Shown here: positions 9,626-61,519 of the stretch, in pieces
How positions within the stretch are numbered: position 1 is the first letter of the stretch
Layout: the number at the start of each line of letters is the position of its first letter
Assembly: GCA_964481465.1 (NCBI GenBank)
Contig: CAYZTL010000011.1
Coordinates: 38,022 to 102,021 of the forward strand
DNA: 64,000 nucleotides
Source of the DNA: an uncultured Anaerolineales bacterium
Lineage (GTDB): Bacteria; Chloroflexota; Anaerolineae; Anaerolineales; UBA11858
Reading direction: 5' to 3'
Position numbers and translations under genes: made by a program
The notes under the pieces: model-generated
Seen by the model: the letters and a program-made list of their open reading frames with translations, nothing else
Databases searched by the model: none
What the model was told of the DNA's origin: nothing

Positions 9626-9697
9626 GCCCCCATAGCTCAGTGGACAGAGTGTCGGCCTCCGGAGCCGAAGACCTGCGTTCGAATCGCAGTGGGGGTA
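9626..9697 (+). tRNA. tRNA-Arg (anticodon CCG); CCA not encoded
   Basis: Cloverleaf: acceptor GCCCCCA/TGGGGGT, D arm GCTC..GAGT, anticodon stem TCGGC/GCCGA with loop CTCCGGA, T arm CTGCG-TTCGAAT-CGCAG. Confidence 0.97.
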
Positions 9698-39833: not shown

Positions 39834-39848
39834 TGCTCTCCTTGATTA

Positions 39849-44662: not shown

Positions 44663-44676
44663 AAGGTGCGTTCTCC

Positions 44677-47600
44677 CTACCAATTTCTGGGCGTATAATG
44701 CCAGCAAAAATTCGCCGCTGGACAATACTCCGGACATCGATCATCTGGTACCCGGGGGACATAATTCCCTTTGCGCGCGCCGAAGATGGCCTTCCAAGAT
44801 TCATTTACGGAAACCTCCATCGCCGCCCGGGGTCCTCTCTTCCCTTGGTGATAGAACCGTTTCAATTGGAAATTGCTCGGTTCTGCATGTTGAACGTGAA
44901 AATAAAAACCGTCCCGCACCTTTCCCAACTGTAAGGCTTTCTCCGCAGCCAGGGCGTAAAGGGAAAGCTGGACTTTCTTCCCCTCTTGGACTGCTTTATT
45001 ATGGAAACCATAAGGGCCGCTGGTTTTATAATCGATGATCCGCAAGCCTCCCTCTTGATCTCTGTCCACCCGGTCTATATATCCCCGCAAACGAAATCTG
45101 TCCCCTTTCGGACCCTCTACCTCCAAAGGGGGCCCTTCACTGTCTTGAATCCCGAATGTTTTCTCTGCCCGGAAAAACCCAAACGAGAGATCTAAACTCT
45201 CCAGCACCTCGATAGATCGGGCTACATTTGCTTTGATTTCCTGCCGTGTTTGCTGCCACCAGGCTGTCTCTCGAAACCCTTCTCGTCTGGGAGCCTGATC
45301 CAATACCCAATCTGCAACTTCCGGCATTTGTCCTCGCAAATTTTTAAGGGAAGGGTTTTCTCCCACGGATTGATAAAGCCGTTCAAAGATATGGTGGTAT
45401 ATGTTCCCCAATTGTCTTGCGTCCAACCCTTCTTGGGGAGGTTCTCTGGGCTCCAAACCTAAAACATGGCTGGTGAAAAAGAAATATGGACAAGTTTGAT
45501 AACTCTCTAAACGACTCGCGCTCCAGATGTGATCTGGACTAAAACGCTCTCTAAACACCGCTCCTTGGCGATCCAAAGACCCGTCATACAAACCAGCTTT
45601 AGAACGGTTTTCCGGGTCTCTTTCCATTAATATATTTTCTGCCTGTAAAATCGAATCCGCCATTTCCGTTTGTCGACTCCGGAAGGCGATCCACACCGCT
45701 CCATCTTTGGGGCAGGAGCAAATCGATTGGGATAATTCACCCCAGGAAGCAGAATCTTTCAACCCTGGTTTGCTAGATGTGGTTAATTCTTGCGGTTCTA
45801 CCACTACCCGCCGCCGGACCTCTTCCCAGTAGGGGGAAGGCTGCCAGGGTGCTCCGTTGTCTGCAATCCGCGACCGGGTGAACAGCAAAGCTTGGCTGGC
45901 CCGGGTAAGGGCCTCATAAAAATATTCACCTTCCCAACTCAATGTGGATGCAGAAAGAGGGAGATTGCAGCGATCCCTCAAATCACCCCGGTCGACATCT
46001 CGCAGAAAGGGGTCTTCGCGCAATGTGGTAGGAAATTCACCTTCCCCCAAACCCAAGATGGCCACGGCTTTGAAAGGGACACCCCGGGCTGCCACGACAT
46101 CCGCTGCCAGAATTCCCCGCTCCCTTTCCCATTGAGACGGCTGATATGTGGCCCCTTCTACAGCCCGGAGGAACTCATCCAGAAAGGTACCATAAGACAC
46201 AGGAGATGTTCCTACAGTCCTTTCCGCCCACACCATCCCACGCAGGATTTCTTTGAACTGCCTTAACGCCTCTAGGTCCCGTTCCGCTAAACCGTTTGAG
46301 CTTTCAGCGACACAACGCACCAGGTTTAGATCGGTTTTTATCCCATCCCCCTCCTCCTCATCGCCAATGATCCCTTCTACCCAGGCGACGAAATCCCGAT
46401 ACGCATGTTTCCCTTTTGGTGGTTGAATGCGCGCCGCGAATCGAGCAAATTTCTTTCTCAACAATTCAGCTTCCTGTCCTTGGGGAAACCTCTGAGGAGG
46501 TTCAGGGTATTCTTCGTCTTTGGTTTCTCCCCGCAAAGTTTGCTTCCCTAAAATCCCGAAAGCTTCCTCCCACTGGTCCAAGCCCCGAATAACCCTTCCC
46601 CAACGAGCGACCCAAGACAATCTCTCTGCATCCATTTCTTCGATGCCTATGGGCGCATCTGCGTCATCAGTGGGGTAAGCATCCTGCCATTCGAAATAGG
46701 GTGACCGCCAGGACTCTATGGTTTCCCGCCAGGGCAGGTGTTCATCTTCTTTATTGGCAATTTGCAGCAAGTTTACAAGGGCAGCTATGGCTGGGTTTTC
46801 CGCCAAAGACCTGCCTTCCTCAACATGCATTGGTAGACCAAATTCATCCGCTGTTTGGTAAAGGAAAGAACGATATGGTTCAAAGTCCCGAAACAATATC
46901 GCCGTCTGATAAGGTTCCCATCCGTTTTGGATGATCTTCTTTTTCAACCACCGCAAGGCGTTCCGCACCTCCCCTTCCCGATCCGGTGCGGCAATCATGG
47001 AAACCGAACTCCCTCCTTCGATTCTCCCTTCCCCTTCTCGGAAAAGGCTCCTTTCCAGATGCCGGATGGGGGAAGCAAGTGAGTTTCCTTTGCGGGGATC
47101 CAGGATAGTTATGTTCTTGATATTCAAAACACTTTCCAACTCTTCTCTGGTTCGTTGAAACCGTTTATGCACCACAGGGCGAGAAGCTCGATCATTTTCT
47201 CCGCTAAGGGTGATGATCAACTCCGGGATGCGCTTCCCTAACTCACCCAAGATCTGGATCTGCACGGGCGTGAAATCATCAAAACCGTCCACGATGAGTG
47301 GTGACCAACCTGGTGGGATCTCTACCTCCCCCTGTAAAGCTTGCAGGGTTAACCAACCGGCGCCGATGTAATCCATCCACCCTTCCTGCTGTAAGCGCCT
47401 TTGATAAGCCTGGTATATCTCCCCAATCTCTGCCAGCCTTCGTCCGCTTTTTATGCTTTTGACAGCAGACTGAAAGTCCTCCGGAGTGATCCCGCCTGCT
47501 TTCAGTTCCCGGATGACATCCATTAGTATTTGCATGAAACCAGGCAAATCCTGTATGCTCCGGTAATATTCAAGAGGAAGATCCTCCACAACATTTCTCA

Positions 47601-47868
47601 GTACGCGTCTTTGGACTGGCTCCGATAAGCGGGTGAGAATCTTGCCGCTCCGGAACATGATGTCCGTATACAAATCATCGAAAGTCCCCACATGGACACC
47701 TAATGCACCGCCTGCAGATGCCAACCTCCGCTCCCAAGATTGGGCTTGTAAACGGGTAGGCACGATCACGCGCGGTGTGGATCTCAAATCCCGTGCAGCG
47801 TCCCGGGCAACTTTCAGAACATACTCAGTTTTGCCAGCCGCTGCTGGGGCGATGATTAACCGGTTAAT
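44677..47868 (-). CDS. addB: AddB-like PD-(D/E)XK nuclease subunit with an Fe-S staple; probable ATT start
   Basis: N-terminal APAAAGKT, WSASRLESY..CPY.FF, G.IYH...E, RGYIDRVD..IIDYKT, QL.LY, C-terminal CPEYCPAANFC. The frame extends 5' of TTG 47787 to ATT 47868. Confidence 0.9.
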   Translation of the reverse strand: MNRLIIAPAAAGKTEYVLKVARDAARDLRSTPRVIVPTRLQAQSWERRLASAGGALGVHVGTFDDLYTDIMFRSGKILTRLSEPVQRRVLRNVVEDLPLEYYRSIQDLPGFMQILMDVIRELKAGGITPEDFQSAVKSIKSGRRLAEIGEIYQAYQRRLQQEGWMDYIGAGWLTLQALQGEVEIPPGWSPLIVDGFDDFTPVQIQILGELGKRIPELIITLSGENDRASRPVVHKRFQRTREELESVLNIKNITILDPRKGNSLASPIRHLERSLFREGEGRIEGGSSVSMIAAPDREGEVRNALRWLKKKIIQNGWEPYQTAILFRDFEPYRSFLYQTADEFGLPMHVEEGRSLAENPAIAALVNLLQIANKEDEHLPWRETIESWRSPYFEWQDAYPTDDADAPIGIEEMDAERLSWVARWGRVIRGLDQWEEAFGILGKQTLRGETKDEEYPEPPQRFPQGQEAELLRKKFARFAARIQPPKGKHAYRDFVAWVEGIIGDEEEGDGIKTDLNLVRCVAESSNGLAERDLEALRQFKEILRGMVWAERTVGTSPVSYGTFLDEFLRAVEGATYQPSQWERERGILAADVVAARGVPFKAVAILGLGEGEFPTTLREDPFLRDVDRGDLRDRCNLPLSASTLSWEGEYFYEALTRASQALLFTRSRIADNGAPWQPSPYWEEVRRRVVVEPQELTTSSKPGLKDSASWGELSQSICSCPKDGAVWIAFRSRQTEMADSILQAENILMERDPENRSKAGLYDGSLDRQGAVFRERFSPDHIWSASRLESYQTCPYFFFTSHVLGLEPREPPQEGLDARQLGNIYHHIFERLYQSVGENPSLKNLRGQMPEVADWVLDQAPRREGFRETAWWQQTRQEIKANVARSIEVLESLDLSFGFFRAEKTFGIQDSEGPPLEVEGPKGDRFRLRGYIDRVDRDQEGGLRIIDYKTSGPYGFHNKAVQEGKKVQLSLYALAAEKALQLGKVRDGFYFHVQHAEPSNFQLKRFYHQGKRGPRAAMEVSVNESWKAIFGARKGNYVPRVPDDRCPEYCPAANFCWHYTPRNW

Positions 47869-48041: not shown

Positions 48042-48205
48042 CAGGTTAGTATACAGTACTTCCATTTCTATCACAGCCAGGTCTTGCTCCTTTGCGGAAA
48101 AGATCTTGCTGCTCTGATCCGTTTCATTGATTGGTAAACCAAAATAAATCAACATATAGATGGAAAACCCCGGCCTATCCTTGGGGTTTTTTCTGGAGGT
48201 GGATG

Positions 48206-49474
48206 ATGGCTGGCAATCGCTATACGAAACTCCTTTTGGTTGGACTGACCCTCTTCTTTGCCATCCTGGCTTGCAATATACCCCAAGAAGAACTCTCTGC
48301 ATCGCCGGTCACAGAAGAAACCCGACCAAGCGAAGGAGGGGAAGCAAACGAGGAAACACTCACTCCCGATGAAGACCAAGGGGCTCCGCTGACCTCTACT
48401 CCTTCCCTCACACCTACGATCACTCTTACTCCCACGATCACCCTCACCAGCACCCCAGAGGTGCCCATGGCCAGTGTGACCATGAACACGAACTGCCGTT
48501 CGGGGCCCGGTAAGGATTACCAGAAATTGGGGGTTCTCCTGGTGAGAGAGGAAACCGAGATCGTTGGGATCGGCAGCACGGGATATTACTACATCGTCCG
48601 CAATCCCGATAAGCCAAATCAGGTATGTTGGTTGTGGGATAAATATGTAGAGGTACACGGGAACATCGAGGGGATTCCAAAGATGACCCCGCCACCCAGC
48701 CCAACTCCTATCCCGACTATCTCCTATCAGATCACCCCGGAAAGACTTATCAGCTGCGGTCCAACTGAATACATGGTGTATTGGGTCGGAAACGACGGGG
48801 AAACGGCTTTAGAATCAGCGGAGGTGAAAATCAAGAACCTCGATACCTCGACGACCATCTTCGGGCCCGGTCACACCGATGCCCCTTTCACTCCTAACGT
48901 TACCTCCTGCCCACCGGGATTTGACACCCTGGGACCGGGCGGCGCAGCTTATATGGCTATTATGGTTAATCCCCCACCTAACGCTTTAGAAAAAATCCGC
49001 GCAACCGTGAAAATTTGCTCCCAGAATGGGTTAGGGGAACCCTGCTTGACCAAGCAGGTGGATTGGGAGAATGTTGCCATCTCCGATCGTAACAAAAAAA
49101 CGGATATCACCCCCATCGCTCCCCAAGATGTGCTGGACAAGGTCGCTTCTCTGCCCATCTCATCCTGGAGCTACCAGTACGATGATCCATCCATCCGTCA
49201 CATCGGTCCTATGGCCCAGGACTTCTACCGTCTTTTCCAGGTAGGTGACAATGACACGCTCATCCATGGCATAGACGCATACGGTGTTTCCTTGGCTGCC
49301 ATCCAGGCCTTAAACGAACACATGGTGGATATGGAATCTCGTCTGACAGCTCTAGAAAAACAAACCTCCCCGTCCTTAACCCCACAAGTCCCTTGGTGGA
49401 CCTTACTTTTCGTTCTATGCGCAGGTTTGTGTTTAGGTGCCCTTGGATACCGCTGGTGGAGTCAACGATCCTAA
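48206..49474 (+). CDS. Lipoprotein with SH3-like domain, Peptidase_S74/ICA autoprocessing chaperone domain, coiled coil and C-terminal TM anchor
   Basis: Lipobox ILAC; NCRSGPG.DY..LG.L; SDRNKK, HIGPMAQDF, GVSLAAIQAL; TM WWTLLFVLCAGLCLGALGY plus RWWSQRS. GGAGGT RBS. Confidence 0.88.
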   Translation: MAGNRYTKLLLVGLTLFFAILACNIPQEELSASPVTEETRPSEGGEANEETLTPDEDQGAPLTSTPSLTPTITLTPTITLTSTPEVPMASVTMNTNCRSGPGKDYQKLGVLLVREETEIVGIGSTGYYYIVRNPDKPNQVCWLWDKYVEVHGNIEGIPKMTPPPSPTPIPTISYQITPERLISCGPTEYMVYWVGNDGETALESAEVKIKNLDTSTTIFGPGHTDAPFTPNVTSCPPGFDTLGPGGAAYMAIMVNPPPNALEKIRATVKICSQNGLGEPCLTKQVDWENVAISDRNKKTDITPIAPQDVLDKVASLPISSWSYQYDDPSIRHIGPMAQDFYRLFQVGDNDTLIHGIDAYGVSLAAIQALNEHMVDMESRLTALEKQTSPSLTPQVPWWTLLFVLCAGLCLGALGYRWWSQRS

Positions 49475-50626: not shown

Positions 50627-53600
50627 ATGAGTATCCCTGTCACCCGAACCAGAATAATCCTTCCCCGTCGGCGTCCAGACCTCCTTTCCCGCGAACGTCT
50701 GCTGGACATGTTAGACGATTTACTGGATTACAAGCTGATCTTGATCTCTGCTCCTGCTGGTTACGGGAAGACATCCCTCTTAGTGGATCTCGCTCATCAG
50801 GTTGAATACCCTGTCTGCTGGTACTCCTTGGACTCTCTCGATCAGGATTTCCAACGCTTTCTAGCACATTTCATATCCGCGATTCAACACCGTTTTCCGG
50901 ACTTCGGAGAAAATTCACTTTCCGTCCTGGAAAACGTGTCCCCTAATCAAATGGACCACAGCCGCCTGGTGAGGACAATCGTCAACGACGTTTTTGAACA
51001 CATTGATGAGCACTTCGCCATGGTGTTGGATGATTATCATCTGGTGGAAGATAACGAAGACATCAACCTTTTCATGAACCGTTTGGTGCAGGAAATGGAT
51101 GAAAACTTCCACCAGGTCATCTCCTCCCGCACTTTACTCAGCCTGCCCGATTTGCCGCTCATGGTCGGCAGATCCCAGGTCAAAGGGCTCAGCTTTGAGG
51201 AATTGTCTTTCCGCCCCGACGAAATCCAAGCGCTGATGCAGGAAAAATACCACCAGGTGATCTCCGAACAACAAGCCCAGAGAATCGCGGAACGTACTGA
51301 CGGCTGGGTCACCGGTCTGCTGCTCTCCGCGGAGACCATGTGGAAAGGGTTGACCGGTCAAACCCGCGTCACCCTGGCCTCGGGCGTGGATCTATATGAC
51401 TATTTAGCTCAGCAGGTGCTGGACCAGCAGTCTCCCGAACTGCGTTCCTTCCTGCTACGTTCTTCCCTCCTTGAAGAATTCAACGCCCCACTCTGTGAAG
51501 CGATCTTGGGAGACCCGCCCCAGGGAGAAAGCTGGCCAAGCATGCTCGCCAAGGTCATGCAGTATAACCTCTTCGTCCAGCCTTTGGAGGATGAAGGCAC
51601 CTGGATTCGCTACAATCACCTCTTCCGGGATTTCCTGCAAGAACGCCTGACCATTGAACGGCCGGAGGAAAAAGAGCGCTTACTGCGCCGGATGATCGAG
51701 GTCTATACGGAGCGGGAAGAGTGGGAGAAGGCGTACTTTGTCTGCCAGCAATTGGGGGATCACGAAACCACGGCAACGCTGGTTGAACAAGCTGGTATTC
51801 CTATGATGATTAAAGGAAGAATTGCAACCCTAGCTAATTGGATTGACACTATCCCACAAGCAACGTTAAACAAGCATCCAAATATCGTTGCCCGTCGTGG
51901 AGCAGCATCTATGATGCTAGGAAATGTTGAGGAAGGATCAACCTTTTTAAATAAGGCAGAAGAATCATTAAGAGGGACAGACTCTGTTGATAAACTAAAC
52001 CTCTCTCGTACATTGGTTTGGCAATCTACCATACATAGATTCCAGGGTAATTATAAAAAATCTCTCTCCTACGCAAATGAAGTCTTAAATATGATCCATG
52101 AAAAAGGAGAAGATATAACAAGAATTAAGGCTGAAGCATTTAGAGAAATGGGACTGGGATATTATCGACTTGGGAAGGTTAATCAAGCCCTCGATCCATT
52201 AATAAAAGCAATAAATCTGTATTCGTCGATAGGTGAAGAAAAAGATGAAGCTTTAGTCAACATGGATATCGGACTCACCTCCATGTATGTTGGCAAATAC
52301 AAAACAGCGTCCACCCATTATCAAAACGCACTACAGCTCTGGCAAAAAAACAACAATATCACACAGCTAGCAAATCTATTAAACAACATGGGGGTTTTAG
52401 CCAATCTCCAGGGTGAGTATACACAGGCTAAAGAATATTTTCAAAAAGCTCTTAAACGTGCCCAAGAAAGCGGATACCGTCGCACAGAAGGGTTTGTCCT
52501 CACCAGCTTGGGGGATTTATACGCGGACCTGGAAGCTTACACGGCGGTGAAGGAAAATTACGCTCAAGCCCAAGAGATCGCGCAGGAAATAGGCGATCAG
52601 TACTTACTAAATTATCTAGACATCACCCAAGCTTCTCTTTCTAGAAAACTCCAAAAACACGTCCGGGCCCACAACCTGCTGGACGATGTCGAACCGTACA
52701 TCGAAGAGTCCGGGTCCAGTTATGAGAGCGGTCTCCACAATCTGGAACGCGGGAAACTCTACCTTTCGGAGGGAAAAGCTGAGAAAGCGGTCCTGCTCCT
52801 GGAAACAGCGGTTCGAGAGTTCGAGAGTGGGGGCCAGCGTGTCGAAAGCGCCCAAGCGCACCTCTACCTTGCCCAGGCCTACCAGGATGAGGGAAGCCAA
52901 GAATCCGCAGTCCATCACATCAGCAGAGCCTTTCAAACGGCTTCCATCCTGCAAAGCCTGCACCCCCTCATCCACAGTGGAAGGGAGGTGAAGCCAGCGC
53001 TGCGCGCAGCGCAAAGTACTTCCCAAATCGGGGATCAGGTATCTCAGCTCTTGGACGCCATCCGCGAATTCGAAAAGGAACTGCCATCCTTGCAGTATGC
53101 CATTTATAAAGATGAAGACGAATTGGAACTCTTCATCCCCGGACTGAGCATCCAGGCGCTGGGGCGCGCCCAGGTCAAGCGCCACGGAAAAGTGGTCACC
53201 GCTTCGGAATTCACAAACCAAAGAGCCGTGCGGGAACTCTTCTACTTCCTCCTTGTCCATCCGGACGGCCTGCGCAAGAGGGCCATCGGCCAGGCTCTGT
53301 GGCCTAACAGCGCACCGGAAGAGCTTAAACGCCAGTTCAAAAACGCGGTCTACCGTCTGCGGCGGGCTCTGGGCAAAGAAGTGGTCCTATACGACCAGGA
53401 AGAAAAGCGCTACCGCTTCAACTGGGGGCTAGACTACCGCTACGATGTGGAGGACTTCCGGACCCACCTCTCCCGGGCCCATAACGCAGAAACGGAAGAA
53501 GAGCTCAAAACGGCTCTGGAAAACGCCATCACCCTTTACCGCCACCCTTATCTGCCCCGGGTCTCTCATTTATGGGTGGAGCCCATCCGCAACCGCCTCT

Positions 53601-53872
53601 TCCGGCAGTATAAAGACGCCGTGCTCACCCTGGCAGAGCTCCACCTGGATGCTGGGGATTTCGAAAAATCGGTTCAAACCTGCCAGCGTTTACTTATCAT
53701 TGATCCCTGCCAGGAAAGGGCCCACCGCCTGTCGATGCGTGCCCATGCCGCTTTGGGCGATCGGGCTGCCGTCGCCCGCCAATACCAATCCTGCCGGAAA
53801 GCCCTTTCCCAAGACCTGGATACCTCCCCTTCCCCGGAAACGGAAGAGCTTTACCGCCGTTTAATGGATTGA
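50627..53872 (+). CDS. MalT-like STAND ATPase-TPR regulator with C-terminal wHTH-BTAD
   Basis: L.RERLL..L, SAPAGYGKT, WYSLD..D, VLDDYH, GWVTGL; TPR array; L.IQALG...V, F...VYRLRRALG, YDVEDF, DP..E.AHR..MR. Confidence 0.92.
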   Translation: MSIPVTRTRIILPRRRPDLLSRERLLDMLDDLLDYKLILISAPAGYGKTSLLVDLAHQVEYPVCWYSLDSLDQDFQRFLAHFISAIQHRFPDFGENSLSVLENVSPNQMDHSRLVRTIVNDVFEHIDEHFAMVLDDYHLVEDNEDINLFMNRLVQEMDENFHQVISSRTLLSLPDLPLMVGRSQVKGLSFEELSFRPDEIQALMQEKYHQVISEQQAQRIAERTDGWVTGLLLSAETMWKGLTGQTRVTLASGVDLYDYLAQQVLDQQSPELRSFLLRSSLLEEFNAPLCEAILGDPPQGESWPSMLAKVMQYNLFVQPLEDEGTWIRYNHLFRDFLQERLTIERPEEKERLLRRMIEVYTEREEWEKAYFVCQQLGDHETTATLVEQAGIPMMIKGRIATLANWIDTIPQATLNKHPNIVARRGAASMMLGNVEEGSTFLNKAEESLRGTDSVDKLNLSRTLVWQSTIHRFQGNYKKSLSYANEVLNMIHEKGEDITRIKAEAFREMGLGYYRLGKVNQALDPLIKAINLYSSIGEEKDEALVNMDIGLTSMYVGKYKTASTHYQNALQLWQKNNNITQLANLLNNMGVLANLQGEYTQAKEYFQKALKRAQESGYRRTEGFVLTSLGDLYADLEAYTAVKENYAQAQEIAQEIGDQYLLNYLDITQASLSRKLQKHVRAHNLLDDVEPYIEESGSSYESGLHNLERGKLYLSEGKAEKAVLLLETAVREFESGGQRVESAQAHLYLAQAYQDEGSQESAVHHISRAFQTASILQSLHPLIHSGREVKPALRAAQSTSQIGDQVSQLLDAIREFEKELPSLQYAIYKDEDELELFIPGLSIQALGRAQVKRHGKVVTASEFTNQRAVRELFYFLLVHPDGLRKRAIGQALWPNSAPEELKRQFKNAVYRLRRALGKEVVLYDQEEKRYRFNWGLDYRYDVEDFRTHLSRAHNAETEEELKTALENAITLYRHPYLPRVSHLWVEPIRNRLFRQYKDAVLTLAELHLDAGDFEKSVQTCQRLLIIDPCQERAHRLSMRAHAALGDRAAVARQYQSCRKALSQDLDTSPSPETEELYRRLMD

Positions 53873-54000
53873 AGGCACCATCTGCACTGCCATCATTACT
53901 TCAATAACACATTAATTTTCCACAGGAAATAAACTCTAGAATGGGAGAGGATTGCTGCCTTTTCCCTAAAAGTAATTCAATTGTAATTGTTTTTTCATCA

Positions 54001-54049
54001 TTAAGAGCATGGTTAAGAGCTACCCTGGGAGACCGGAATAGGTCATAAT
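54001..54049 (+). promoter_or_regulatory. Direct repeat TTAAGAGC x2 upstream of a -10-only promoter
   Basis: Repeats at 54001-54008 and 54013-54020; CATAAT at 54044-54049; no recognisable -35. Confidence 0.5.
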
Positions 54050-54095
54050 GTGTTTCCGAGGATACGAAAGAACCGATTTAGTGAGGAGGTCAACA

Positions 54096-54137
54096 ATGAG
54101 ACAGCCAGGGCAAGACGGCGGACCCGGAGCAATCTAG
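54096..54137 (+). CDS. Putative 13-aa peptide MRQPGQDGGPGAI
   Basis: AGGAGG (54084-54089), 6-nt spacer, ATG; sits just downstream of the predicted promoter; followed by an 11-bp inverted repeat. Confidence 0.55.
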   Translation: MRQPGQDGGPGAI

Positions 54138-54395
54138 ATAACTCCACTCCTGTTTTTAACCGTCTTTCAATTACGGTTAAAAAATTGGGCTCAATAATAG
54201 CGCTATCAAATCCCTGTGTTGAATTGGGTCTGTTAGTTTATTTTGGGTAACACCCGATTTTTATATCACACAGATCCATCTAGGTGATAGCGGCTGACAG
54301 AAAAAATGCATCCATCGCAGAAGGAGCCCAGTGGCTATGATGGACAGGAGTCAGAGAAAACCGTAAATAATAGCTTAATATTTTTTTCGAAGAAA

Positions 54396-54426
54396 GGCCC
54401 GATTCTACAAAGAAGCGGGCTCTTTT
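54396..54426 (+). terminator. Terminator-like hairpin just upstream of the NHLP-like gene RBS
   Basis: gcccg-a-ttct-acaa-agaa-g-cgggc followed by tctttt. Confidence 0.45.
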
Positions 54427-54450
54427 AACTGGAATGAAAAGGAGTAAATA

Positions 54451-54804
54451 ATGAACACCTATTCGATGTACTCTCCCCGTTTGGATACGACAGTAGCCAC
54501 GAGACCGGATCAACCCAGTGAGGGCCTCAACCGCTTGATTGCTGCCGCTGTCATCAACCAAAACTTCTGTGATTCGCTGCTCAACACACCCGAATTAGCC
54601 TTGGAAAACGGCTACTTCGGAGAGCAATTCAATCTTGAGGATCACGAAGTGGGTCTAATCCTATCTATCGAGGCGGATAATTTAAGTGATTTTGCCAACC
54701 AGGTCGTTGAACGAGGACATGAAGAATTTGAATACCGACGAGTCAGTGGAAGCAGCTGCTGGGTCCCAGCGGAACCAGCCATGGTCGTCATGGATCCGAA
54801 CTGA
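54451..54804 (+). CDS. Small protein resembling NHLP-clan (Os1348/Franean1_4349-like) leader domains
   Basis: LNRLIAAAVINQNFCDSLLNTPELALENGY.G..F.L...E..LI.SI; AAGGAG RBS. Confidence 0.7.
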   Translation: MNTYSMYSPRLDTTVATRPDQPSEGLNRLIAAAVINQNFCDSLLNTPELALENGYFGEQFNLEDHEVGLILSIEADNLSDFANQVVERGHEEFEYRRVSGSSCWVPAEPAMVVMDPN

Positions 54805-56755
54805 CTTTGACACCCTTTCATATGATCATGGGGATCGCTCCCCGTCCATCCCTGTTGCAATCTGGATGATTGACCGCCAGGGTCAATTCACCCTGTCAGA
54901 AGGTCATGGCCTTGCTGACTTGGGTTTGGAACCGGGTGAAGTGGTTGGCAAATCCATCTACGACCTTTACGCAGATGTCCCCCAGATTTTAGAGTGTGTC
55001 AAGCGGGCCCTAAACGGGGAAACAGTGGAAGCTACAATCCAGGCGGAAGATACACACTGGAACGCGTATTATTACCCCACCCGGAATGCCAAGGGGCGGA
55101 TTACTGGAGTTATCGGCGTGGCTTTTAACAACTCCAAAGAACACGAACTACTACGGAGACAAGAGTTGTTAATGGATCTCGCGGCCACGTTGCGCTCCAT
55201 AAACACCCGAAAAGAAATGCCCGCCAAAGTCCTTGAGAAATTGGTGGATTTGTTCCATGCCCAGGGAGCCATGATCCTCTCTCGTTCTCCATCCAATCAC
55301 GGTTTGGAAATCGAAGAATGTTCAGGGATAGAGGATCTCCTGCAGGGAAAAACAATCAATTTAGATGATTACCCCTGGTTGCTTGATAGATCTGAACAAA
55401 TCATATCCACCGCTCAACCCCATCTTGATGAGCAGATCTCAGAGCAGCTCCCCTTTATCCATGGCGCTCAGGCCATTGCCGGTGTCCCCATTTCTGGGAG
55501 AGATAAGATCATTGGGGTGATCTGGGTTTTGCGCGATCAGCCGCTCAACAAAATGGAATTGGGTTTGTTGACTGAAGTGGGTGAGATCACAGGCATTTCT
55601 TTCCATCAAGCAGAACAATACGAACAAACGCAACGGCGTCTCCATCGCCTTTCTGCCCTGCATGCCATCGATCAAGCGATCACGGGAACGTTTGATCTTA
55701 ACGTCACGCTCAATGTCATTCTGGATCAGGTCGTCACCCAATTAGAGGTGGACGCGGCTGACATTTTCCTTTATAAGCCAAAAACCCACAACCTCGAGTT
55801 CGGAGAGGGACGAGGATTCAATCACACTGACAGTTCCCACCAGCAAGTCAGAGAACGAGTGGGACTGTTATGGCAAGTAGCCCGCGAACGAGCCTTGGTT
55901 AACATCCCCAACCTGCCCCACCGCACACAGACCTTTGTTCGCCGCTCATTGATTGAGGAGGAAGGGTTTGTTACTTACTTTGGGATCCCTTTAATCGCCA
56001 AAGGTGAGATCAAAGGGGTCTTGGAGGTTTTCCATCGTAAGTCTCTTGAAATCGACAAAGAATGGATAAGCTTCTTTAAGACACTGGCCAATCAAGCAGC
56101 TATCGCGATTGATAATGCAGCCCTCTTCGAAGACCTGCGAAAGTCGAACATGAAACTCGATCTGGCTTATCACTCCACCCTTGAAGGCTGGGTCCATGCC
56201 TTGGATTTGCGTGATGAGGAAAGCCAGGGACACACGAAACGGGTAACGCAGCATACGCTGCGTTTGGCCAAAGCTATGGGGATAAACGGGGAGGATTTGG
56301 TACACATCCGCCGCGGGGCCCTGCTCCATGATATCGGAAAGCTGGCAATCTCAGATGACATTCTCCACAAAAAAGGCTCATTGACTGAAGAGGAATGGGA
56401 ACAGATCAAAAAACACCCCCTTTACGCTCAGGAAATGCTGTCTGAAATTGAATTCTTACATCCTGCCTTGGATATCCCGTACTGCCATCATGAAAAATGG
56501 GACGGTTCGGGGTACCCGCGTGGATTAAAAGGAGAAAGGATCCCTCTTGCAGCTCGTATATTCGCCGTCATCGATGTCTGGGATTCATTAACCAACGACC
56601 GACCCTACCGCAACGCCTGGTCTGAGAAAGAAGCCATCCAATACATTTTGGAACATATCGGAACGCACTTCGATCCCAACGTGGTAGAAACCTGGATGGA
56701 AGTGTTTGACATCGAACCTCCCGAGGAGGAAATCTTAGAAGACCTCTTTCGATAA
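54719..56755 (+). CDS. PAS-GAF-GAF-HD-GYP phosphodiesterase (start uncertain)
   Basis: PAS (IDRQG.F..SEG.GL..LG...VVGKS), GAF domains, RDEES.GH..RV, GALLHDIGK, HHEKWDGSGYP, DRPYR. Confidence 0.9.
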   Translation: MKNLNTDESVEAAAGSQRNQPWSSWIRTDFDTLSYDHGDRSPSIPVAIWMIDRQGQFTLSEGHGLADLGLEPGEVVGKSIYDLYADVPQILECVKRALNGETVEATIQAEDTHWNAYYYPTRNAKGRITGVIGVAFNNSKEHELLRRQELLMDLAATLRSINTRKEMPAKVLEKLVDLFHAQGAMILSRSPSNHGLEIEECSGIEDLLQGKTINLDDYPWLLDRSEQIISTAQPHLDEQISEQLPFIHGAQAIAGVPISGRDKIIGVIWVLRDQPLNKMELGLLTEVGEITGISFHQAEQYEQTQRRLHRLSALHAIDQAITGTFDLNVTLNVILDQVVTQLEVDAADIFLYKPKTHNLEFGEGRGFNHTDSSHQQVRERVGLLWQVARERALVNIPNLPHRTQTFVRRSLIEEEGFVTYFGIPLIAKGEIKGVLEVFHRKSLEIDKEWISFFKTLANQAAIAIDNAALFEDLRKSNMKLDLAYHSTLEGWVHALDLRDEESQGHTKRVTQHTLRLAKAMGINGEDLVHIRRGALLHDIGKLAISDDILHKKGSLTEEEWEQIKKHPLYAQEMLSEIEFLHPALDIPYCHHEKWDGSGYPRGLKGERIPLAARIFAVIDVWDSLTNDRPYRNAWSEKEAIQYILEHIGTHFDPNVVETWMEVFDIEPPEEEILEDLFR

Positions 56756-56844
56756 GTAAGATTTCTGGGTTTACAGGTTGAAACCCCACCTATTAAAAAA
56801 ATAAAATAAACCGCACTATCACCCTCGCATCCATTGCATTCTTC

Positions 56845-57687
56845 ATGATTAGACAAAAAACATCCACCCCAAAGAAATTCCAGGAAAGGAGTTCAGCGTA
56901 CTCTTCTCTCAAAATATCCCTTATCTACGTGATCCTTGGCATTGCCTGGATACTGTTCTCAGATACCATCGCTCTCGTCATTTTTCAACAGGATGTTGAC
57001 CGCCTCTCATCCATCCAAACCTTTAAAGGAACGCTGTACGTGGTTACGACCGCGGTGGTCCTTTTCATCCTCATGGAGCGAGATTTCCGAAAGATCAATC
57101 AATCCCAGCAAGTGTTGAAGGATAGTTATCACGCCACGCTAGGAGGTTGGGTCCAAGCGCTCCACCTGCGTGATGAAGAAACGCAAGAACATACACAGCG
57201 CGTGATCGAAGATTGTATAAAACTGGCAAAAGCAATGAAGGTAGACGAGAAATCGCTCATTCATATCCGCCGTGGAGCGCTTCTCCATGACATTGGCAAG
57301 TTGGGCATTTCCGATGACATATTGATGAAATCGGGTGCGCTTACCCCCGAAGAAAGGAAAATCATTGAGTTGCACCCTGTGTTTGCCCGGGATTTGATCC
57401 GTGATATCGAATTTCTCCAACCTGCGTTAGCTATCCCCTACTGCCATCACGAGAAATGGGATGGCAGTGGATACCCCCAAGGATTGCAGGGCGAGGAAAT
57501 CCCCCTTGAAGCGCGGATCTTTGCCGTCATCGATGTCTGGGATGCCTTGACCAGTGATCGCCCTTACCGCGATGCCTGGACCGACAAAGAAGCGGAACGG
57601 TATATCCTGGAACAATCCGGAAAACACTTTGATCCCCAGGTAGTGGATACCTGGCAGAAAGTTTTCCAGATTTCCAACCACACATAG
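56845..57687 (+). CDS. Membrane-bound HD-GYP phosphodiesterase
   Basis: Two TMs (WILFSD, QTFKG), RDEETQEH..RV, GALLHDIGK, HHEKWDGSGYP.GL.GEEIP, DRPYR. Confidence 0.92.
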   Translation: MIRQKTSTPKKFQERSSAYSSLKISLIYVILGIAWILFSDTIALVIFQQDVDRLSSIQTFKGTLYVVTTAVVLFILMERDFRKINQSQQVLKDSYHATLGGWVQALHLRDEETQEHTQRVIEDCIKLAKAMKVDEKSLIHIRRGALLHDIGKLGISDDILMKSGALTPEERKIIELHPVFARDLIRDIEFLQPALAIPYCHHEKWDGSGYPQGLQGEEIPLEARIFAVIDVWDALTSDRPYRDAWTDKEAERYILEQSGKHFDPQVVDTWQKVFQISNHT

Positions 57688-58355: not shown

Positions 58356-59420
58356 TTGAAAATTGCCATCAGCGCCGATCACCATCTTACCACGCAGGAA
58401 ACGCATCCGGAAAGATTCACAGCGATGGAGGATATCCTCCATCGCTGTGCTGACACCGGGGTCGACCTCTTGATCATTGCTGGAGACCTATTTGATCAAA
58501 CCAACCCCCATTATGCTGATTTTGAAGATCTCTTCCGCGAACACTGTCCCCCAGACCTGCTTACCTACATCCTCCCTGGAAACCATGATGTGGGATTGAG
58601 CGGAGATGCCCTAACCTTGGAGGATGTCAATGTCTATGCGAATCCAACCCTGGTTTCACCTCTGGAGGATGGACCCCAAATCCTCCTTCTCCCCTATCAA
58701 GCGGATGCTACTATGGGAGAAGAGATCGCACCCTTTGCGGAAGACCTCACCGCCCACCATTGGCTGTTAGTCAGCCATGGGGATTGGACCCGCGGTCAGA
58801 AATACCCCGACCCCTATGAACCGGGCCTGTACATGCCCCTTACCCAAACTGACTTGGATACCTATAAACCCCGGAAAGTCTTTCTGGGGCACATCCATCG
58901 ACCCATGGACCAGGCTCCCATCCATTATTCGGGATCCCCCTGCCCGTTAAACATCACGGAAACCGGCTTGCGGCGCTTCTTGACCTATGATACGCAGAGT
59001 GGAGAGGTCACTTCTCACTTGGTGAACAGCCCTTTGCTCTACTTTCAAGAAACCTTCTTGGTCTTCCCTGTAGAGGATGAGGTCGCTCATCTGAGCGAAC
59101 AAATCTCAGACCGGGTTCAATCCTGGGACCTACCGGAAGGATGGGAGGATAAGGTCCAGATTCGAGTCACAGTCACCGGCTACACTCGTAACCGAGCTGC
59201 CATTAAAGAGACAATAATCAAGGGATTTGAACCGTACTCATTCGTTGAAGACCAAGGACCAGATCTTTCTGAATTGAAACACTCGCTAGACCCCGATCGA
59301 GCCCATATCGCCCAGCAAGTGAAAATCTGGGTGGATGATCTAGAATGGGCAGACAGCCCTCGCCAGCCGGATAAAGACCAAATTCTCGCTGAAGCCCTGA
59401 AAGCCATCTATGGAGCCTGA
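58356..59420 (+). CDS. SbcD/Mre11/YhaO-like metallophosphoesterase nuclease
   Basis: ADHH, AGDLFD, PGNHD, SHG, LGHIH, YSGS motifs. Confidence 0.9.
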   Translation: MKIAISADHHLTTQETHPERFTAMEDILHRCADTGVDLLIIAGDLFDQTNPHYADFEDLFREHCPPDLLTYILPGNHDVGLSGDALTLEDVNVYANPTLVSPLEDGPQILLLPYQADATMGEEIAPFAEDLTAHHWLLVSHGDWTRGQKYPDPYEPGLYMPLTQTDLDTYKPRKVFLGHIHRPMDQAPIHYSGSPCPLNITETGLRRFLTYDTQSGEVTSHLVNSPLLYFQETFLVFPVEDEVAHLSEQISDRVQSWDLPEGWEDKVQIRVTVTGYTRNRAAIKETIIKGFEPYSFVEDQGPDLSELKHSLDPDRAHIAQQVKIWVDDLEWADSPRQPDKDQILAEALKAIYGA

Positions 59421-59422
59421 TC

Positions 59423-61519
59423 ATGCCCGTGTGGATTGAACGCCTTAATGTCGAAAATTTGGGGCCCATAAGCGAGCAGTTATTCGCCTTTGACCGCTTT
59501 AACCTGATATATGGCGCCAATGAGACCGGGAAAACGTTCCTGGTCGAATTCTTACTTCGCTCCCTTTTCCGCCATGCATCCAAATGGTCTTTGCGAGATT
59601 TGCCCGGGCGTGGAAAGGTCTCTCTGCGGGGTTTAAATGAAGAGTTCGTGGATTTCACACCGGGCAGTCGGAAAAAATTGGAGGATTATTGGGAAGAGGA
59701 TGAAAACGGTCTACCTGCAAACATGGCTCAATTGTTGGTGGTCAAAGGGGGCGAGTTAGACCTCTCCAGAAAAACTCCTGGAGGTGTGGGTCGAGCGGTC
59801 CTTAAAACCGCCCTTTCCCGGGAGACGCTTTTGGATCAAATTTTAGAGTCGATTCGACAAACGGTCCAAAACGCTGAGATCCGGGAAGGAGAAATCATCG
59901 CTGACCGGAGGGCGAAGAATGTTAAACGGAGAGAAGAGCTGAGGGAAAACCTGCGTAAAATGGAGAACATCCAGGATCAGGTGGAGAAAAAGTACTCTCG
60001 AGGTCCCATCCGCACTTTAGAACTCAAATTAGAAAACGTGCAATCCTCCCTTGCAGAACAACAGCGCGCCAAACGGTATCGAGCGTATCAACTGCAAAAA
60101 GAAAGGGAAGAATGGGAGGAGAAACGAAAAAACTTGCCCGATCAAAAAATCGAAGTGCTGCGCGATCACATCCGTGATTACCAACAAACCAAAAAAACCC
60201 TTCTCGATAAAAAGGAACAGCTCCAAGAAAAAAAGGAAGCCAGCCAACATTATCTGTGGCTGAAAAAGGCGGTAGAGACCTGGGAAAGCCAGGACCTCGA
60301 TCGGAGCGGACAGCCGAATCGCATCTTTATGATCGGGGGCTTCCTGCTTATCATAACCGGTTTGGCTTTAATCTTCTTCCAACAACCTGCGCTTGTGCTG
60401 GTTCCCTCTTCCTTAGGCATACTCAGTTTGGCCTATTACTTCTGGCGCTTCCACCGCTGGTCAACTTCCGCAGCTCAATCCCAGGAGCGGGAAAACATCC
60501 AAAAAACTTACCAAGAACATTTCGGAAATACCCTCCGCGGTGTCGCAGAACTCAAAGCCCGCTTGGAAGCAATCCAGGAAACTCACATCAAAGCCGAACA
60601 GATCCAGAAAGACATTGAAGGCTTAGAGAATCAGAAAAAGTCCCTCTCCAATCACATCCAATCTCAATTTCAAGACCTCATAGGGGAGGAAGTTGAGGAA
60701 GAGGATTGGCAAGAGGAAGTGACCACCCTGCGCGAAAAGGCAAAAGAGCTCAATGAAAATATCAAAGACTTGGAATTGGAATCCCGTGCATTAGGTGTGG
60801 CAGAAACTGAATATCGCTCTCAACCTGCTGGTGTACCATATCAAGAACGGAAATTGGAGGATTTGAAGAAGAGAAGAGAAGAAATCAAGGCGGACATCCT
60901 GGCTGCTGAGGACAAACTTAACAATTTAAAGCAAAGCATCTGTACGTGGACTGGAGACGACATCAATACACCTTGGAATAAAGCCCTGGAACATTTACAA
61001 GATGAGTATAGGCGGTTGCGGAAGGACTACAAACAACTCACAGCGGAGATCGTGGCCAAAATCGGGGTCACCCAGGTTCTTGAACAGGTCAGAGAGCAAG
61101 AAGACGAGAAAATACGCCAAGGTCTGCGTTCAAAAGAAGTGATCGAGATCTTAGAATCGGTGACAGAGGTTTATCAATCCCTGGATCTAGCTGGTGAGCA
61201 GGTTCTGGTAAAAGGTGCATATGGCGATTACCCGTTGCGCGAATTGAGCACCGGCGCCCAAGAACAAATCCTGTTGGCCCTGCGCATGGGATTCGCTTCC
61301 CGGTTTGGTGGTGGTCAACCCCTGTTCATGATCCTGGATGATGCCTTCCAGCATTCCGATTGGCAGCGACGGGAGCGGTTAGTGAAGAAAGTGATCCACT
61401 TCGCGAAAAACGATTGGCAGGTCATTTACCTGACCATGGACGATCACCTCCGGGACCTTTTCCGGGAAGCAGGCGAAAGACTATTCCCGAAGCATTTTAC
61501 TTTCCACGAATTGATATAA
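59423..61519 (+). CDS. Rad50/YhaN-like SMC ATPase with an internal TM hairpin
   Basis: GANETGKT Walker A, coiled coils, two central hydrophobic helices, LSTGAQEQ signature, ILDDAFQHSD Walker B/D-loop. Confidence 0.9.
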   Translation: MPVWIERLNVENLGPISEQLFAFDRFNLIYGANETGKTFLVEFLLRSLFRHASKWSLRDLPGRGKVSLRGLNEEFVDFTPGSRKKLEDYWEEDENGLPANMAQLLVVKGGELDLSRKTPGGVGRAVLKTALSRETLLDQILESIRQTVQNAEIREGEIIADRRAKNVKRREELRENLRKMENIQDQVEKKYSRGPIRTLELKLENVQSSLAEQQRAKRYRAYQLQKEREEWEEKRKNLPDQKIEVLRDHIRDYQQTKKTLLDKKEQLQEKKEASQHYLWLKKAVETWESQDLDRSGQPNRIFMIGGFLLIITGLALIFFQQPALVLVPSSLGILSLAYYFWRFHRWSTSAAQSQERENIQKTYQEHFGNTLRGVAELKARLEAIQETHIKAEQIQKDIEGLENQKKSLSNHIQSQFQDLIGEEVEEEDWQEEVTTLREKAKELNENIKDLELESRALGVAETEYRSQPAGVPYQERKLEDLKKRREEIKADILAAEDKLNNLKQSICTWTGDDINTPWNKALEHLQDEYRRLRKDYKQLTAEIVAKIGVTQVLEQVREQEDEKIRQGLRSKEVIEILESVTEVYQSLDLAGEQVLVKGAYGDYPLRELSTGAQEQILLALRMGFASRFGGGQPLFMILDDAFQHSDWQRRERLVKKVIHFAKNDWQVIYLTMDDHLRDLFREAGERLFPKHFTFHELI

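Follow-up and report, generated by a model that had tools for sequence, protein, structure and literature searches.

The 64,000-nt stretch of Anaerolineales DNA analysed here, referred to below as the window, carries between positions 50627 and 57687 a gene for a STAND NTPase-TPR-SARP regulator, a promoter with three direct repeats, a 13-codon open reading frame (ORF), a gene for a small protein of the NHLP clan and two HD-GYP genes. We suggest, with a probability of roughly 50%, that this region represents one regulatory unit conserved in Anaerolineales, in which a pair resembling AfsR and AfsS would be wired to cyclic-dinucleotide turnover. The evidence base for the window is comparative and computational. 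Every element named in the original prediction for this DNA is present, and all of them are co-directional on the + strand; they are given here one per line.

50627-53872, + strand: regulator gene, 1081 aa, STAND NTPase-TPR-SARP
53971-53987, + strand: conserved upstream element AGTAATTCAATTGTAAT, from the alignment of four form-A loci (form A is leaderless, as described below)
54001-54036, + strand: three direct repeats, a putative SARP box, phased by 12 bp and covering the -35 position
54044-54049, + strand: -10 hexamer CATAAT, invariant in the four aligned form-A loci
54083-54089, + strand: ribosome-binding site (RBS) GAGGAGG, preceding the micro-ORF
54096-54137, + strand: micro-ORF of 13 codons, MRQPGQDGGPGAI, encoding MRQ-PGQDGGPGAI
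54392-54426, + strand: hairpin GGCCCG...CGGGC followed by UUUU, from folding and conservation
54451-54804, + strand: gene for an NHLP-clan protein (Os1348/Frankia_peptide, LigA-like fold), 117 aa
54719-56755, + strand: PAS-GAF-GAF-HD-GYP gene (HD-GYP1), 678 aa counted from the conserved ATG
56845-57687, + strand: second HD-GYP gene (HD-GYP2), with two transmembrane (TM) helices ahead of the HD-GYP domain, 280 aa

Recurrence of the module, its regulator and its promoter

Related loci, which carry L numbers here, were collected from homologues of the 117-aa protein, from context look-ups of exact proteins, from a genome scan and from a metagenome scan. The genome scan returned three Anaerolineales metagenome-assembled genomes (MAGs), and the metagenome scan, made with the regulator alignment, returned two loci; most gene contexts were therefore taken from the exact-protein look-ups. 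The source samples are microbial-mat and hypersaline-lake metagenomes, and the window shares 81-84% amino-acid identity with the MAG loci L009-L011.

The order of regulator, repeat promoter, small ORF, optional DUF5317 gene, NHLP-like gene and (PAS)-GAF-GAF-HD-GYP gene recurs in about ten further lineages. It is complete in the window, L001, L002-L004, L009, L011, L012, L013, L014/L015, L016, L019/L020 and L024 (the last frameshift-ridden, with the same gene order), and the partial loci L006, L007, L008, L010 and L018 agree with it; in L001, the C-terminus of the regulator had been missed by the gene caller and was located upstream with tblastn. Conservation of the association across loci had been set beforehand as a test of the original prediction, and it was borne out: the gene set and the promoter recur wherever DNA is available, including loci where identity has dropped to 33-38% in the TPR region and to about 37% in the NTPase region. 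A purely coincidental neighbourhood of unrelated co-directional genes is something to which we give next to no credence. It could draw on the flanking genes for AddAB, SbcCD and a HEAT-repeat protein, which are unrelated housekeeping genes, and on the second HD-GYP gene, which is not conserved; but order and promoter are retained among lineages whose flanking genes are entirely different, so that coincidence is contradicted by synteny.

The regulator had been labelled a STAND-TPR-BTAD protein with a SARP-like winged helix-turn-helix (wHTH) and BTAD, and its matches to MalT, TPR, BTAD and the SARP part of AfsR confirm this label. A MalT-type STAND NTPase with a winged-helix domain spans about residues 1-400: residues 8-503 match the MalT model NF003420 (2.5e-71), residues 10-356 match the MalT structure PDB 8BOB (7e-34), and the Walker A and Walker B motifs (APAGYGKTS and VLDDYH) are kept in the regulators of five lineages. 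The TPR region (about 400-830) matches several TPR families (TPR_12 at 3.8e-24, and TPR_MalT), while residues 482-666 resemble, by PDB sequence match, the TPRs of LGN/Pins and of kinesin light chain (KLC); WHD_MalT and TPR_MalT are also recorded in the orthologues. The protein thereby has the parts that characterize STAND/MalT-like regulators, namely a P-loop NTPase with Walker A and B motifs, a MalT-type winged helix and a C-terminal repeat sensor. It ends in a SARP domain, in which an OmpR-type wHTH (about 831-940) is followed directly by BTAD (941-1081), the arrangement typical of the SARP family; Pfam places BTAD at residues 940-1079 (2.2e-21), positions 32-266 of the AfsR model NF053617 align to residues 843-1080, and residues 30-263 of AfsR in PDB 8K60/8JKE align to residues 845-1080. 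A scan with the PADLOC defence models gave only a generic TPR match for the regulator and none for the other three proteins; in view of the missing specific match, membership in anti-phage STAND (Avs-like) or other defence systems was dropped.

Compared domain by domain, no part of the regulator evolves faster than the TPR region: relative to the protein of the window, that of L014 is 58% identical in the NTPase, 33% in the TPR region and 47% in the wHTH, and that of L023 is 37%, 25% and 38% identical, respectively. From these low identities we conclude that the module is old.

The intergenic region downstream of the regulator gene (53873-54450, 578 nt) runs up to the start of the gene for the 117-aa protein, with its RBS and ATG. 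Its direct repeats, TTAAGAG at 54001, TTAAGAG at 54013 and CTGGGAG at 54025, have a period of 12 bp; the full units are TTAAGAGCATGG, TTAAGAGCTACC and CTGGGAGACCGG in the window, TTAAGAGACCCA/TTAAGAGACCTC/CAGAGAGAC in L014 and TTAAGAGCCTGG/TTAAGAGCCTGC/CCAGGAGCC in L016. The repeats take up the -35 position, where the window reads TACCCT and offers no usable -35 hexamer; the third unit ends 7-8 bp ahead of the CATAAT -10, and NATAAT is found at the equivalent place in L001, L002, L012, L014, L016 and L019. The direct repeats sit at the usual place of a SARP box, overlapping the -35 and 7-8 bp from the -10. At the afsS promoter, the repeats bound by AfsR overlap the -35 in the same way, with the 3' repeat 8 bp from the -10 (PMC10936776). 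SARP repeats as a rule lie one helical turn apart, at 11 or 22 bp (PMC10936776), as compared to the 12 bp seen here in every lineage.

When both strands of 252 kb of DNA from the window and the related loci are searched for a relaxed version of the motif, YYARGAG-N5-YYARGAG, the promoter of the small ORF is the sole place where it is found. Within a single window the repeat motif alone is not significant, as 34 of 100 shuffles contain at least one match; its significance comes from the comparative data only. Across the four form-A loci, mean pairwise identity is 0.88 in the upstream element (53971-53989), 0.84 in the repeats, 1.00 in the -10 hexamer, 0.67 in the micro-ORF and 0.81 in the hairpin, as compared to 0.48 in the 5' untranslated region, 0.43 in the stretch 3' of the micro-ORF and 0.43-0.50 in neutral flanks. 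The upstream element is AT-rich and lies about 14 bp 5' of the first repeat; it may serve as an additional operator or resemble an UP element. Consensus scans for sigma-70 promoters and terminators gave background levels. In Rfam searches at gathering thresholds the whole window yielded only a tRNA-Arg (9626-9697), and at permissive E-values positions 53850-54500 gave only chance-level matches, with no riboswitch or known small RNA in the intergenic DNA.

The small open reading frame and its micro-protein relatives

A 13-codon ORF with an RBS is found at the same place in five loci: MRQPGQDGGPGAI in the window, MRQPGADGGPGAI in L009, MRQPGAGSGIGGF in L006, MRSPGAGSGIGGY in L011 and MRSPGAGSGIGGL in L013; the positions of RBS and stop codon are the same in L009, L006, L011 and L013. 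Between the window and L009, eight codons of the micro-ORF differ, seven of them synonymously and one nonsynonymously. Over all pairs, the proportion of nonsynonymous differences (pN) in the decapeptide codons is 0.05-0.46 and that of synonymous differences (pS) is 0.5-1.0, with pS down to 0-0.36 only among the near-identical L006, L011 and L013. Judged by these codon comparisons, the 13-aa ORF is real and under purifying selection. A 66-aa ORF in another frame that overlaps the micro-ORF (54050-54250) was rejected, since the DNA 3' of the micro-ORF stop is unconserved.

The decapeptide of the window is homologous to the C-terminal tail of micro-proteins of 45-48 aa in L001, L012, L014, L016, L019 and L023. 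In L012, for example, a leader (MKQVLRDAKMIFSQINRRHMQIILLILSLSLFVLGAGA) is followed by the tail PGAGSGIGGW, and the DUF5317 gene starts within 1-4 nt. A different arrangement is seen in L002, where MKHLKKMSGMQANS is followed by five copies of PGIDGGIGST split by YS; this 72-aa ORF (L002 8134-8352, also in L003 and L004) occupies the place of the micro-ORF in a lineage without DUF5317, and its five copies are perfect. Its repeat structure resembles that of a precursor with several copies of the decapeptide.

A profile search assembled the micro-proteins into a family of 80 clusters of 38-68 aa, some of them from Anaerolineales, which have no Pfam match and are all annotated as "hypothetical". 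Its members have a basic N-region and a TM segment that is highly conserved; the (G/A)AGA-P junction is invariant, and the tails behind it are rich in Gly, variable and 6-13 aa long. The ancestral micro-protein of 45-48 aa is predicted to have an N-in/C-out topology, which places the tail outside the cell.

In a neighbour-joining tree of the NHLP-like proteins, the clade with the 13-aa ORF is sister to L001 and L007, two loci that have the 48-aa micro-protein together with DUF5317, and L002 is sister to L012, another locus of that kind; leader and DUF5317 were therefore lost jointly, and twice, with the tail kept each time. On the basis of homology and gene tree, the 13-aa peptide of the window is a leaderless remnant of the 38-68-aa family, which was ancestrally paired with DUF5317. 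The micropeptide of the original prediction thus survives as a conserved and selected ORF, but has to be seen as a leaderless derivative of a membrane micro-protein family. The double joint loss with retention of the tail further points to the decapeptide that starts with Pro as the functional unit, to an action of DUF5317 on the leader, and to a target that can be reached from the cytoplasm.

The tails also appear to switch between close relatives, although this is based on few cases. L009 (1426-1467) and L006 (146-187) have different tail types, PGADGGPGAI versus PGAGSGIGGF; their NHLP-like proteins are 93% identical, as compared to 50% identity between the decapeptides. The two tail types are spread incongruently with the gene tree, in a manner similar to pherotype polymorphism.

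It is conceivable, though we think it improbable, that the locus is an AfsR-AfsS-type cascade in which the regulator answers to something unrelated, for instance phosphorylation or a small molecule, and in which the peptide is output only and does not feed back on the regulator; the small product would then act inside the cell or in the membrane, as a micro-protein modulator of the HD-GYP enzyme or of the NHLP-like protein. MalT-type sensors are known to bind small molecules, and the leaderless forms A and C function without export machinery, which means that a cytoplasmic target exists. A precedent is AfsR itself, which activates the adjacent afsS through direct repeats over the -35, with AfsS serving as an output regulator (PMC10936776). 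The small product, however, has no sequence similarity to AfsS; variable, switching tails behind a conserved leader resemble the specificity determinants of recognition pairs; and the TPR region resembles, if weakly, the peptide-binding TPRs of LGN and KLC.

The DUF5317 gene (for instance L012 2124-2696 and L014 7360-7971; family P0237-P0356) adjoins the GAGA-P micro-protein gene in all loci examined, and the protein has at least 476 homologues. The window contains no DUF5317 gene across its 64 kb, and tblastn with DUF5317 proteins detected neither a gene nor a pseudogene remnant between micro-ORF and hairpin. The confident AlphaFold model (predicted local distance difference test, pLDDT, 88.4) consists of five TM helices and an extramembrane β-rich domain that carries the invariant motifs NGGxMPISP, KD, LxD and SxGD; by the positive-inside rule, this domain and the GAGA-P junction of the micro-protein would face the same side, outside the cell. 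Proline at +1 is known to block signal peptidase I, which makes it attractive to propose DUF5317 as a dedicated processing factor. The searched literature contains nothing on DUF5317, PF17248, Franean1_4349 or the combination of HD-GYP and NHLP.

About 255 nt of unconserved DNA separate the micro-ORF from the hairpin at 54392-54426. The hairpin folds with a dG of -19 kcal/mol (z -2.35), has a G-C pair replaced by A-U in L011, a compensatory change, and is found again 3' of DUF5317 in L001 and L012; it is likely a leaky terminator or an attenuator between the micro-ORF and the NHLP-like gene. Given that the ORF lies in a 5' leader ahead of a terminator-like hairpin and is rich in Gly and Pro, one could argue that it encodes a cis-acting leader peptide, where stalling at Pro and Gly controls termination at the hairpin and the peptide itself is functionless. 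We consider this very improbable and have rejected it, based on the distance of the hairpin (the ORF ends about 255 nt before it, and the DNA in between is conserved to only 0.43) and on the homologues of the peptide, which are the C-terminal tail of a membrane protein ahead of DUF5317 or a fivefold tandem repeat. In addition, purifying selection at the amino-acid level covers positions that differ between the types.

The NHLP-clan protein and the HD-GYP enzymes

The 117-aa protein scores 24.9 bits against NF038399 (cut-off 40) and 18.4 bits against PF14407 (cut-off 48), and thus has no match to an NHLP/Nif11-type leader domain above the curated thresholds. Among its sampled relatives, NF038399 is matched by 63 of 65 (E<=1e-3) and PF14407 by 48 of 65; membership in the Os1348/Frankia_peptide NHLP clan is supported by these profile matches at the level of the family. 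By exhaustive profile searching, the protein was placed among 821 representative clusters (75-148 aa), which share a core of about 65 aa followed by very variable C-tails. In the AlphaFold model (pLDDT 70.7) a helical core is confident between residues 24 and 92 and the ends are disordered, and a PDB search with the sequence profile of the family gave only matches at E~1, to nitrile hydratase alpha and to Os1348 (6LK7). Os1348 is an 85-aa putative precursor whose Pseudomonas gene cluster includes genes of GNAT, HEXXH-peptidase and SagB type, and crystallises as a dimer (PMC7726476); in ECOD, the LigA-like fold is grouped with NHLP, Nif11, ComX and the TglI peptide-recognition domain (PMC12353581). 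The window protein shares with Os1348/Frankia_peptide (PF14407, NF038399) the helical core of about 65 aa and a weak match to PDB 6LK7. It differs in lying below both cut-offs, in having no GNAT, HEXXH-peptidase, SagB or ATP-grasp neighbour, and in its conserved, HD-GYP-linked C-tail, the partners being DUF5317 and a membrane micro-protein.

This C-tail reads SGSSCWVPAEPAMVVMDPN in the window; the subfamily consensus is [SG]G-x-W-[IV]-P-V-N-Q-P-A-L-V-L-D-A-E, of which [SG]GxW[IV]P...[LV]xD is common to distant relatives. An HD-GYP gene follows the NHLP-like gene in all sampled lineages that bear the tail, and the sampled members without the tail (L021 and L023) have no adjacent HD-GYP gene and still have DUF5317 and the micro-protein gene. 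Though the sample is small and the cases are few, this distribution suggests that the tail is tied to the HD-GYP partner. In L023, the regulator gene and the micro-protein gene are separated by an inserted DDE transposase (5434-6707); a TTAAGAG promoter cannot be recognised there, and the NHLP-like gene has no HD-GYP gene after it.

Members of the Os1348/Frankia_peptide clan are regarded as precursors of ribosomally synthesised and post-translationally modified peptides (RiPPs) (PMC7726476; PMC12353581), and we have weighed whether the locus is a minimal RiPP-like or bacteriocin-like cluster under a cluster-situated SARP, in which the NHLP-clan protein or the micro-protein is the precursor, DUF5317 processes or exports it, and HD-GYP is merely co-regulated. 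SARPs are classically cluster-situated activators; the 821-cluster family combines its conserved core of about 65 aa with very variable C-tails, the micro-protein has a conserved leader with a variable, core-like tail, and NHLP-like genes pair with DUF5317 even where the HD-GYP gene is missing (L021, L022 and L023). A RiPP precursor would, however, be expected next to a maturase or a peptidase-containing ABC exporter and to have a hypervariable core after a GG-type site. We found no maturase (YcaO, radical SAM (rSAM), LanM, ATP-grasp, GNAT/SagB) and no peptidase-containing ABC transporter (PCAT), either in the module of the window or at the other loci; moreover, DUF5317 is absent from the window, and in the HD-GYP-linked subfamily the NHLP tail is conserved and the gene overlaps the HD-GYP gene. 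We therefore regard a RiPP locus as unlikely.

HD-GYP1 most likely starts at ATG 54719, because this ATG is conserved in all lineages, L001 and L002 have stop codons just 5' of it, and the next Met downstream is missing from L006; an alternative start at GTG 54686 was rejected in its favour. Counted from this ATG, the gene overlaps the NHLP-like gene by 86 nt (54719-54804) in the +1 frame, with both frames conserved; in other lineages, the overlaps are 11-59 nt or replaced by short gaps. The overlap fits translational coupling of the two genes. An 86-nt dual-coding stretch is unusually long for bacteria, and dual coding is kept down to lineages at 46% identity, where for example WVPAEPAMVVM is read alongside GSQRNQPWSSW.

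Both HD-GYP proteins have the HD_5 domain (PF13487 at 1.4e-39 and 1.2e-39) with the HD dyad in LLHDIGK and the HHExxDGxGYP motif as HHEKWDGSGYP, and so carry the hallmarks of the HD-GYP family. They share this domain and these motifs with RpfG, PmGH (4MCW), PA4781 and V-cGAP3 (5Z7C), from which they differ in that the sensor part is PAS-GAF-GAF or 2TM instead of a receiver domain (REC), and in that the HD-GYP1 gene overlaps an NHLP-clan gene. Both enzymes match PmGH and the cGAMP-specific V-cGAP3; for HD-GYP2, which has two N-terminal TM helices and is 64% identical to the HD-GYP1 domain over 196 aa, the values are 8.6e-39 (PmGH 4MCW) and 9.5e-36 (V-cGAP3 5Z7C). The substrate may be cyclic di-GMP (c-di-GMP) or, for example, 3'3'-cGAMP. 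HD-GYP2 is present only in the window and L001, and absent in L010, L011, L013 and L002; it is therefore a lineage-specific duplicate and not a core part. Of the two HD-GYP enzymes that had been assigned to the module, both are present with canonical motifs, but only the first is conserved across loci.

Proposed circuit and its relation to known systems

Our preferred reading, the AfsR-AfsS-like unit, can be put together as follows. The regulator would be a cytoplasmic STAND switch that, by homology of its domains, is activated by a ligand via the fast-evolving TPR region together with ATP, and then oligomerises. Its SARP domains would bind the three 12-bp-phased repeats that replace the -35 and recruit RNA polymerase in the manner of AfsR. 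The transcript would first encode the selected Gly-rich decapeptide, ancestrally as the tail of a membrane micro-protein of 45-48 aa and followed by DUF5317; in the clade of the window, leader and DUF5317 were deleted jointly, and the peptide is made directly as MRQ+PGQDGGPGAI. Read-through at the weak hairpin terminator would then express the NHLP-clan protein and the PAS-GAF-GAF-HD-GYP enzyme, whose translation may be coupled by the 86-nt overlap. The enzyme would hydrolyse c-di-GMP or a related cyclic dinucleotide, and the W-x-P...V-x-D tail of the 117-aa protein probably acts on or with it.

As the most speculative step, we propose that the decapeptide could be the feedback ligand of the module, most likely for the TPR region of the regulator. 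That the leader is conserved while the tail varies, that tail types switch and that the TPR region evolves fastest speaks for a recognition function over a generic effector; on these sequence patterns, it is plausible that the TPR region senses the peptide. We also speculate that DUF5317 was a leader-processing or release factor in an ancestral secreted version, and that the window represents a short-circuited, cell-internal loop.

The nearest analogue is AfsR-AfsS of Streptomyces coelicolor. In both, the regulator contains SARP (wHTH and BTAD), STAND NTPase and TPR, and the target, presumed in the present case, is a small gene directly downstream whose promoter has repeats across the -35, the 3' one being about 8 bp away from the -10. 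The differences are that the NTPase is MalT-like here and NB-ARC-like in AfsR, that there are three repeats at 12 bp here and two at 11 bp there, and that the small product is unrelated to AfsS, with the operon running on into NHLP-like and HD-GYP genes; also, the organisms belong to Chloroflexota and Actinomycetota, respectively. With MalT and LAL activators the regulator has in common its N-terminal 400-500 residues with Walker A/B, WHD_MalT and TPR_MalT, whereas its output domain is SARP (wHTH and BTAD) and theirs is a LuxR-type HTH.

The original prediction had drawn on the RRNPP quorum sensors (Rap, Rgg, NprR, PlcR, PrgX, AimR). As in these systems, a cytoplasmic TPR regulator adjoins a small ORF whose promoter bears the presumed operator, and the ancestral propeptide has an export-type leader with a short, variable C-terminal peptide, whose types switch between close relatives. 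When we looked for an adjacent propeptide of RRNPP style, the small ORF was found to be conserved, with the basic region, TM leader and variable tail in its ancestral form and without leader in the window. The regulator departs from RRNPP receptors, in which TPRs are combined with an N-terminal HTH or a phosphatase and there is no NTPase: it has no N-terminal XRE-type HTH and does have a STAND NTPase module. Further differences are the unusual GAGA-P junction of the leader with its dedicated DUF5317 partner, the leaderless peptide of the window, and an organism that is neither a Firmicute nor a phage; peptide binding is putative here. Some RRNPP-like logic can thus be recognised, but with AfsR-AfsS as the nearest analogue, no N-terminal HTH on the regulator and no export signal on the peptide, the analogy is partial. 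Overall, the earlier interpretation holds for the conserved association, the SARP C-terminus and the placement of the repeats, and had to be modified for the nature of the micropeptide, the membership of the second HD-GYP enzyme and the likeness to RRNPP.

A bolder version, which we put forward tentatively and with low confidence, is a new type of peptide-pheromone system of Chloroflexota. Here, DUF5317 would cut the micro-protein at GAGA-P outside the cytoplasm, as a dedicated leader peptidase that might be of the Ser/Lys or Asp type and have a new fold; the TPR region of the STAND-SARP protein would sense the imported decapeptide, the operon would be auto-induced, and c-di-GMP would be lowered by an HD-GYP enzyme gated by its NHLP-fold partner protein. 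The window would then be a natural, short-circuited leaderless version of the kind that evolved twice independently.

Several points weigh against the proposed AfsR-AfsS-like unit. The peptide of the window has no export signal and the ancestral tail is predicted outside the cell, so that a single common receptor would need re-import or an unlinked exporter, and the binding protein of the peptide is not singled out by any comparison. The regulator does not have the SARP, NOD/NB-ARC, TPR order of AfsR-type large SARPs, and reads instead NTPase (1-400), TPR (400-830), SARP (831-1081). The repeats have a period of 12 bp, as compared to the 11 bp typical of SARPs. Read-through at the hairpin is assumed, and the NHLP-like gene may have an internal promoter. 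Foldseek against PDB gave no hit with the model of the 117-aa protein and no fold match with that of DUF5317, so that neither search assigned a function. The independent lineages sampled number about ten, every one of them derived from metagenomes, and no RNA-seq runs containing the region were found.

The surroundings of the module differ between loci. In L014 (11390-12436) and L016 (11370-13812), genes for Rce1-like (CPBP) intramembrane proteases lie 2-3 kb 3' of the module, and L016 also has an ABC exporter downstream; the window has no such protease or exporter genes. The CPBP neighbours could be linked to processing of the peptide or immunity, or could be a coincidence. In the window, the module lies between DNA-repair genes, with a helicase-nuclease of AddA/AddB type on the - strand (41234-47787) and SbcD/SbcC-like genes on the + strand (58356-61519), and synteny with L001, L010 and L011 extends over the TM118-SbcD-SbcC block. 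Positions 48131-49474 encode a protein of 447 aa that carries a TM or signal segment at its N-terminus, repeats rich in Thr and Pro (TPSLTPTITLTPTITLTSTPE), an SH3-like match and, near the C-terminus, Peptidase_S74 (endosialidase intramolecular chaperone), in a chromosomal and not a phage setting. Two adjacent DUF4388 (PATAN-like) proteins, one with a receiver domain, are encoded on the - strand at 38829-40949, and a 1534-aa ORF at 23-4627 matched only N-terminal TPRs and a helix-hairpin-helix near residue 1400.

Anaerolineales, which are filamentous, abound in mats, sediments and digesters, and to our knowledge their signalling has been little studied. The parts of the module are of known kinds (STAND/MalT, SARP, HD-GYP and the NHLP clan). 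In the literature searched, there is no description of the module in Anaerolineales, nor of a regulator with this permuted architecture, a triple repeat at 12 bp, the family of micro-proteins with its DUF5317 partner or the overlap of NHLP-fold and HD-GYP genes. The module ties three sizeable families without an assigned function, namely the micro-proteins (80 clusters), DUF5317 (at least 476 homologues) and this branch of the NHLP clan (821 clusters), to a regulator and to cyclic-dinucleotide turnover, and the link to regulator and HD-GYP gives each of them a testable context. If the decapeptide is indeed the ligand, STAND-TPR-SARP would be a new receptor architecture for peptide signalling, with none found described for the phylum in the searched literature, and the NHLP fold would serve as a signalling partner and not as a RiPP leader. 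Read conservatively, the locus would still be a clean natural circuit of the AfsR-AfsS kind outside Actinomycetota, with a putative operator that is well defined and easily assayed.

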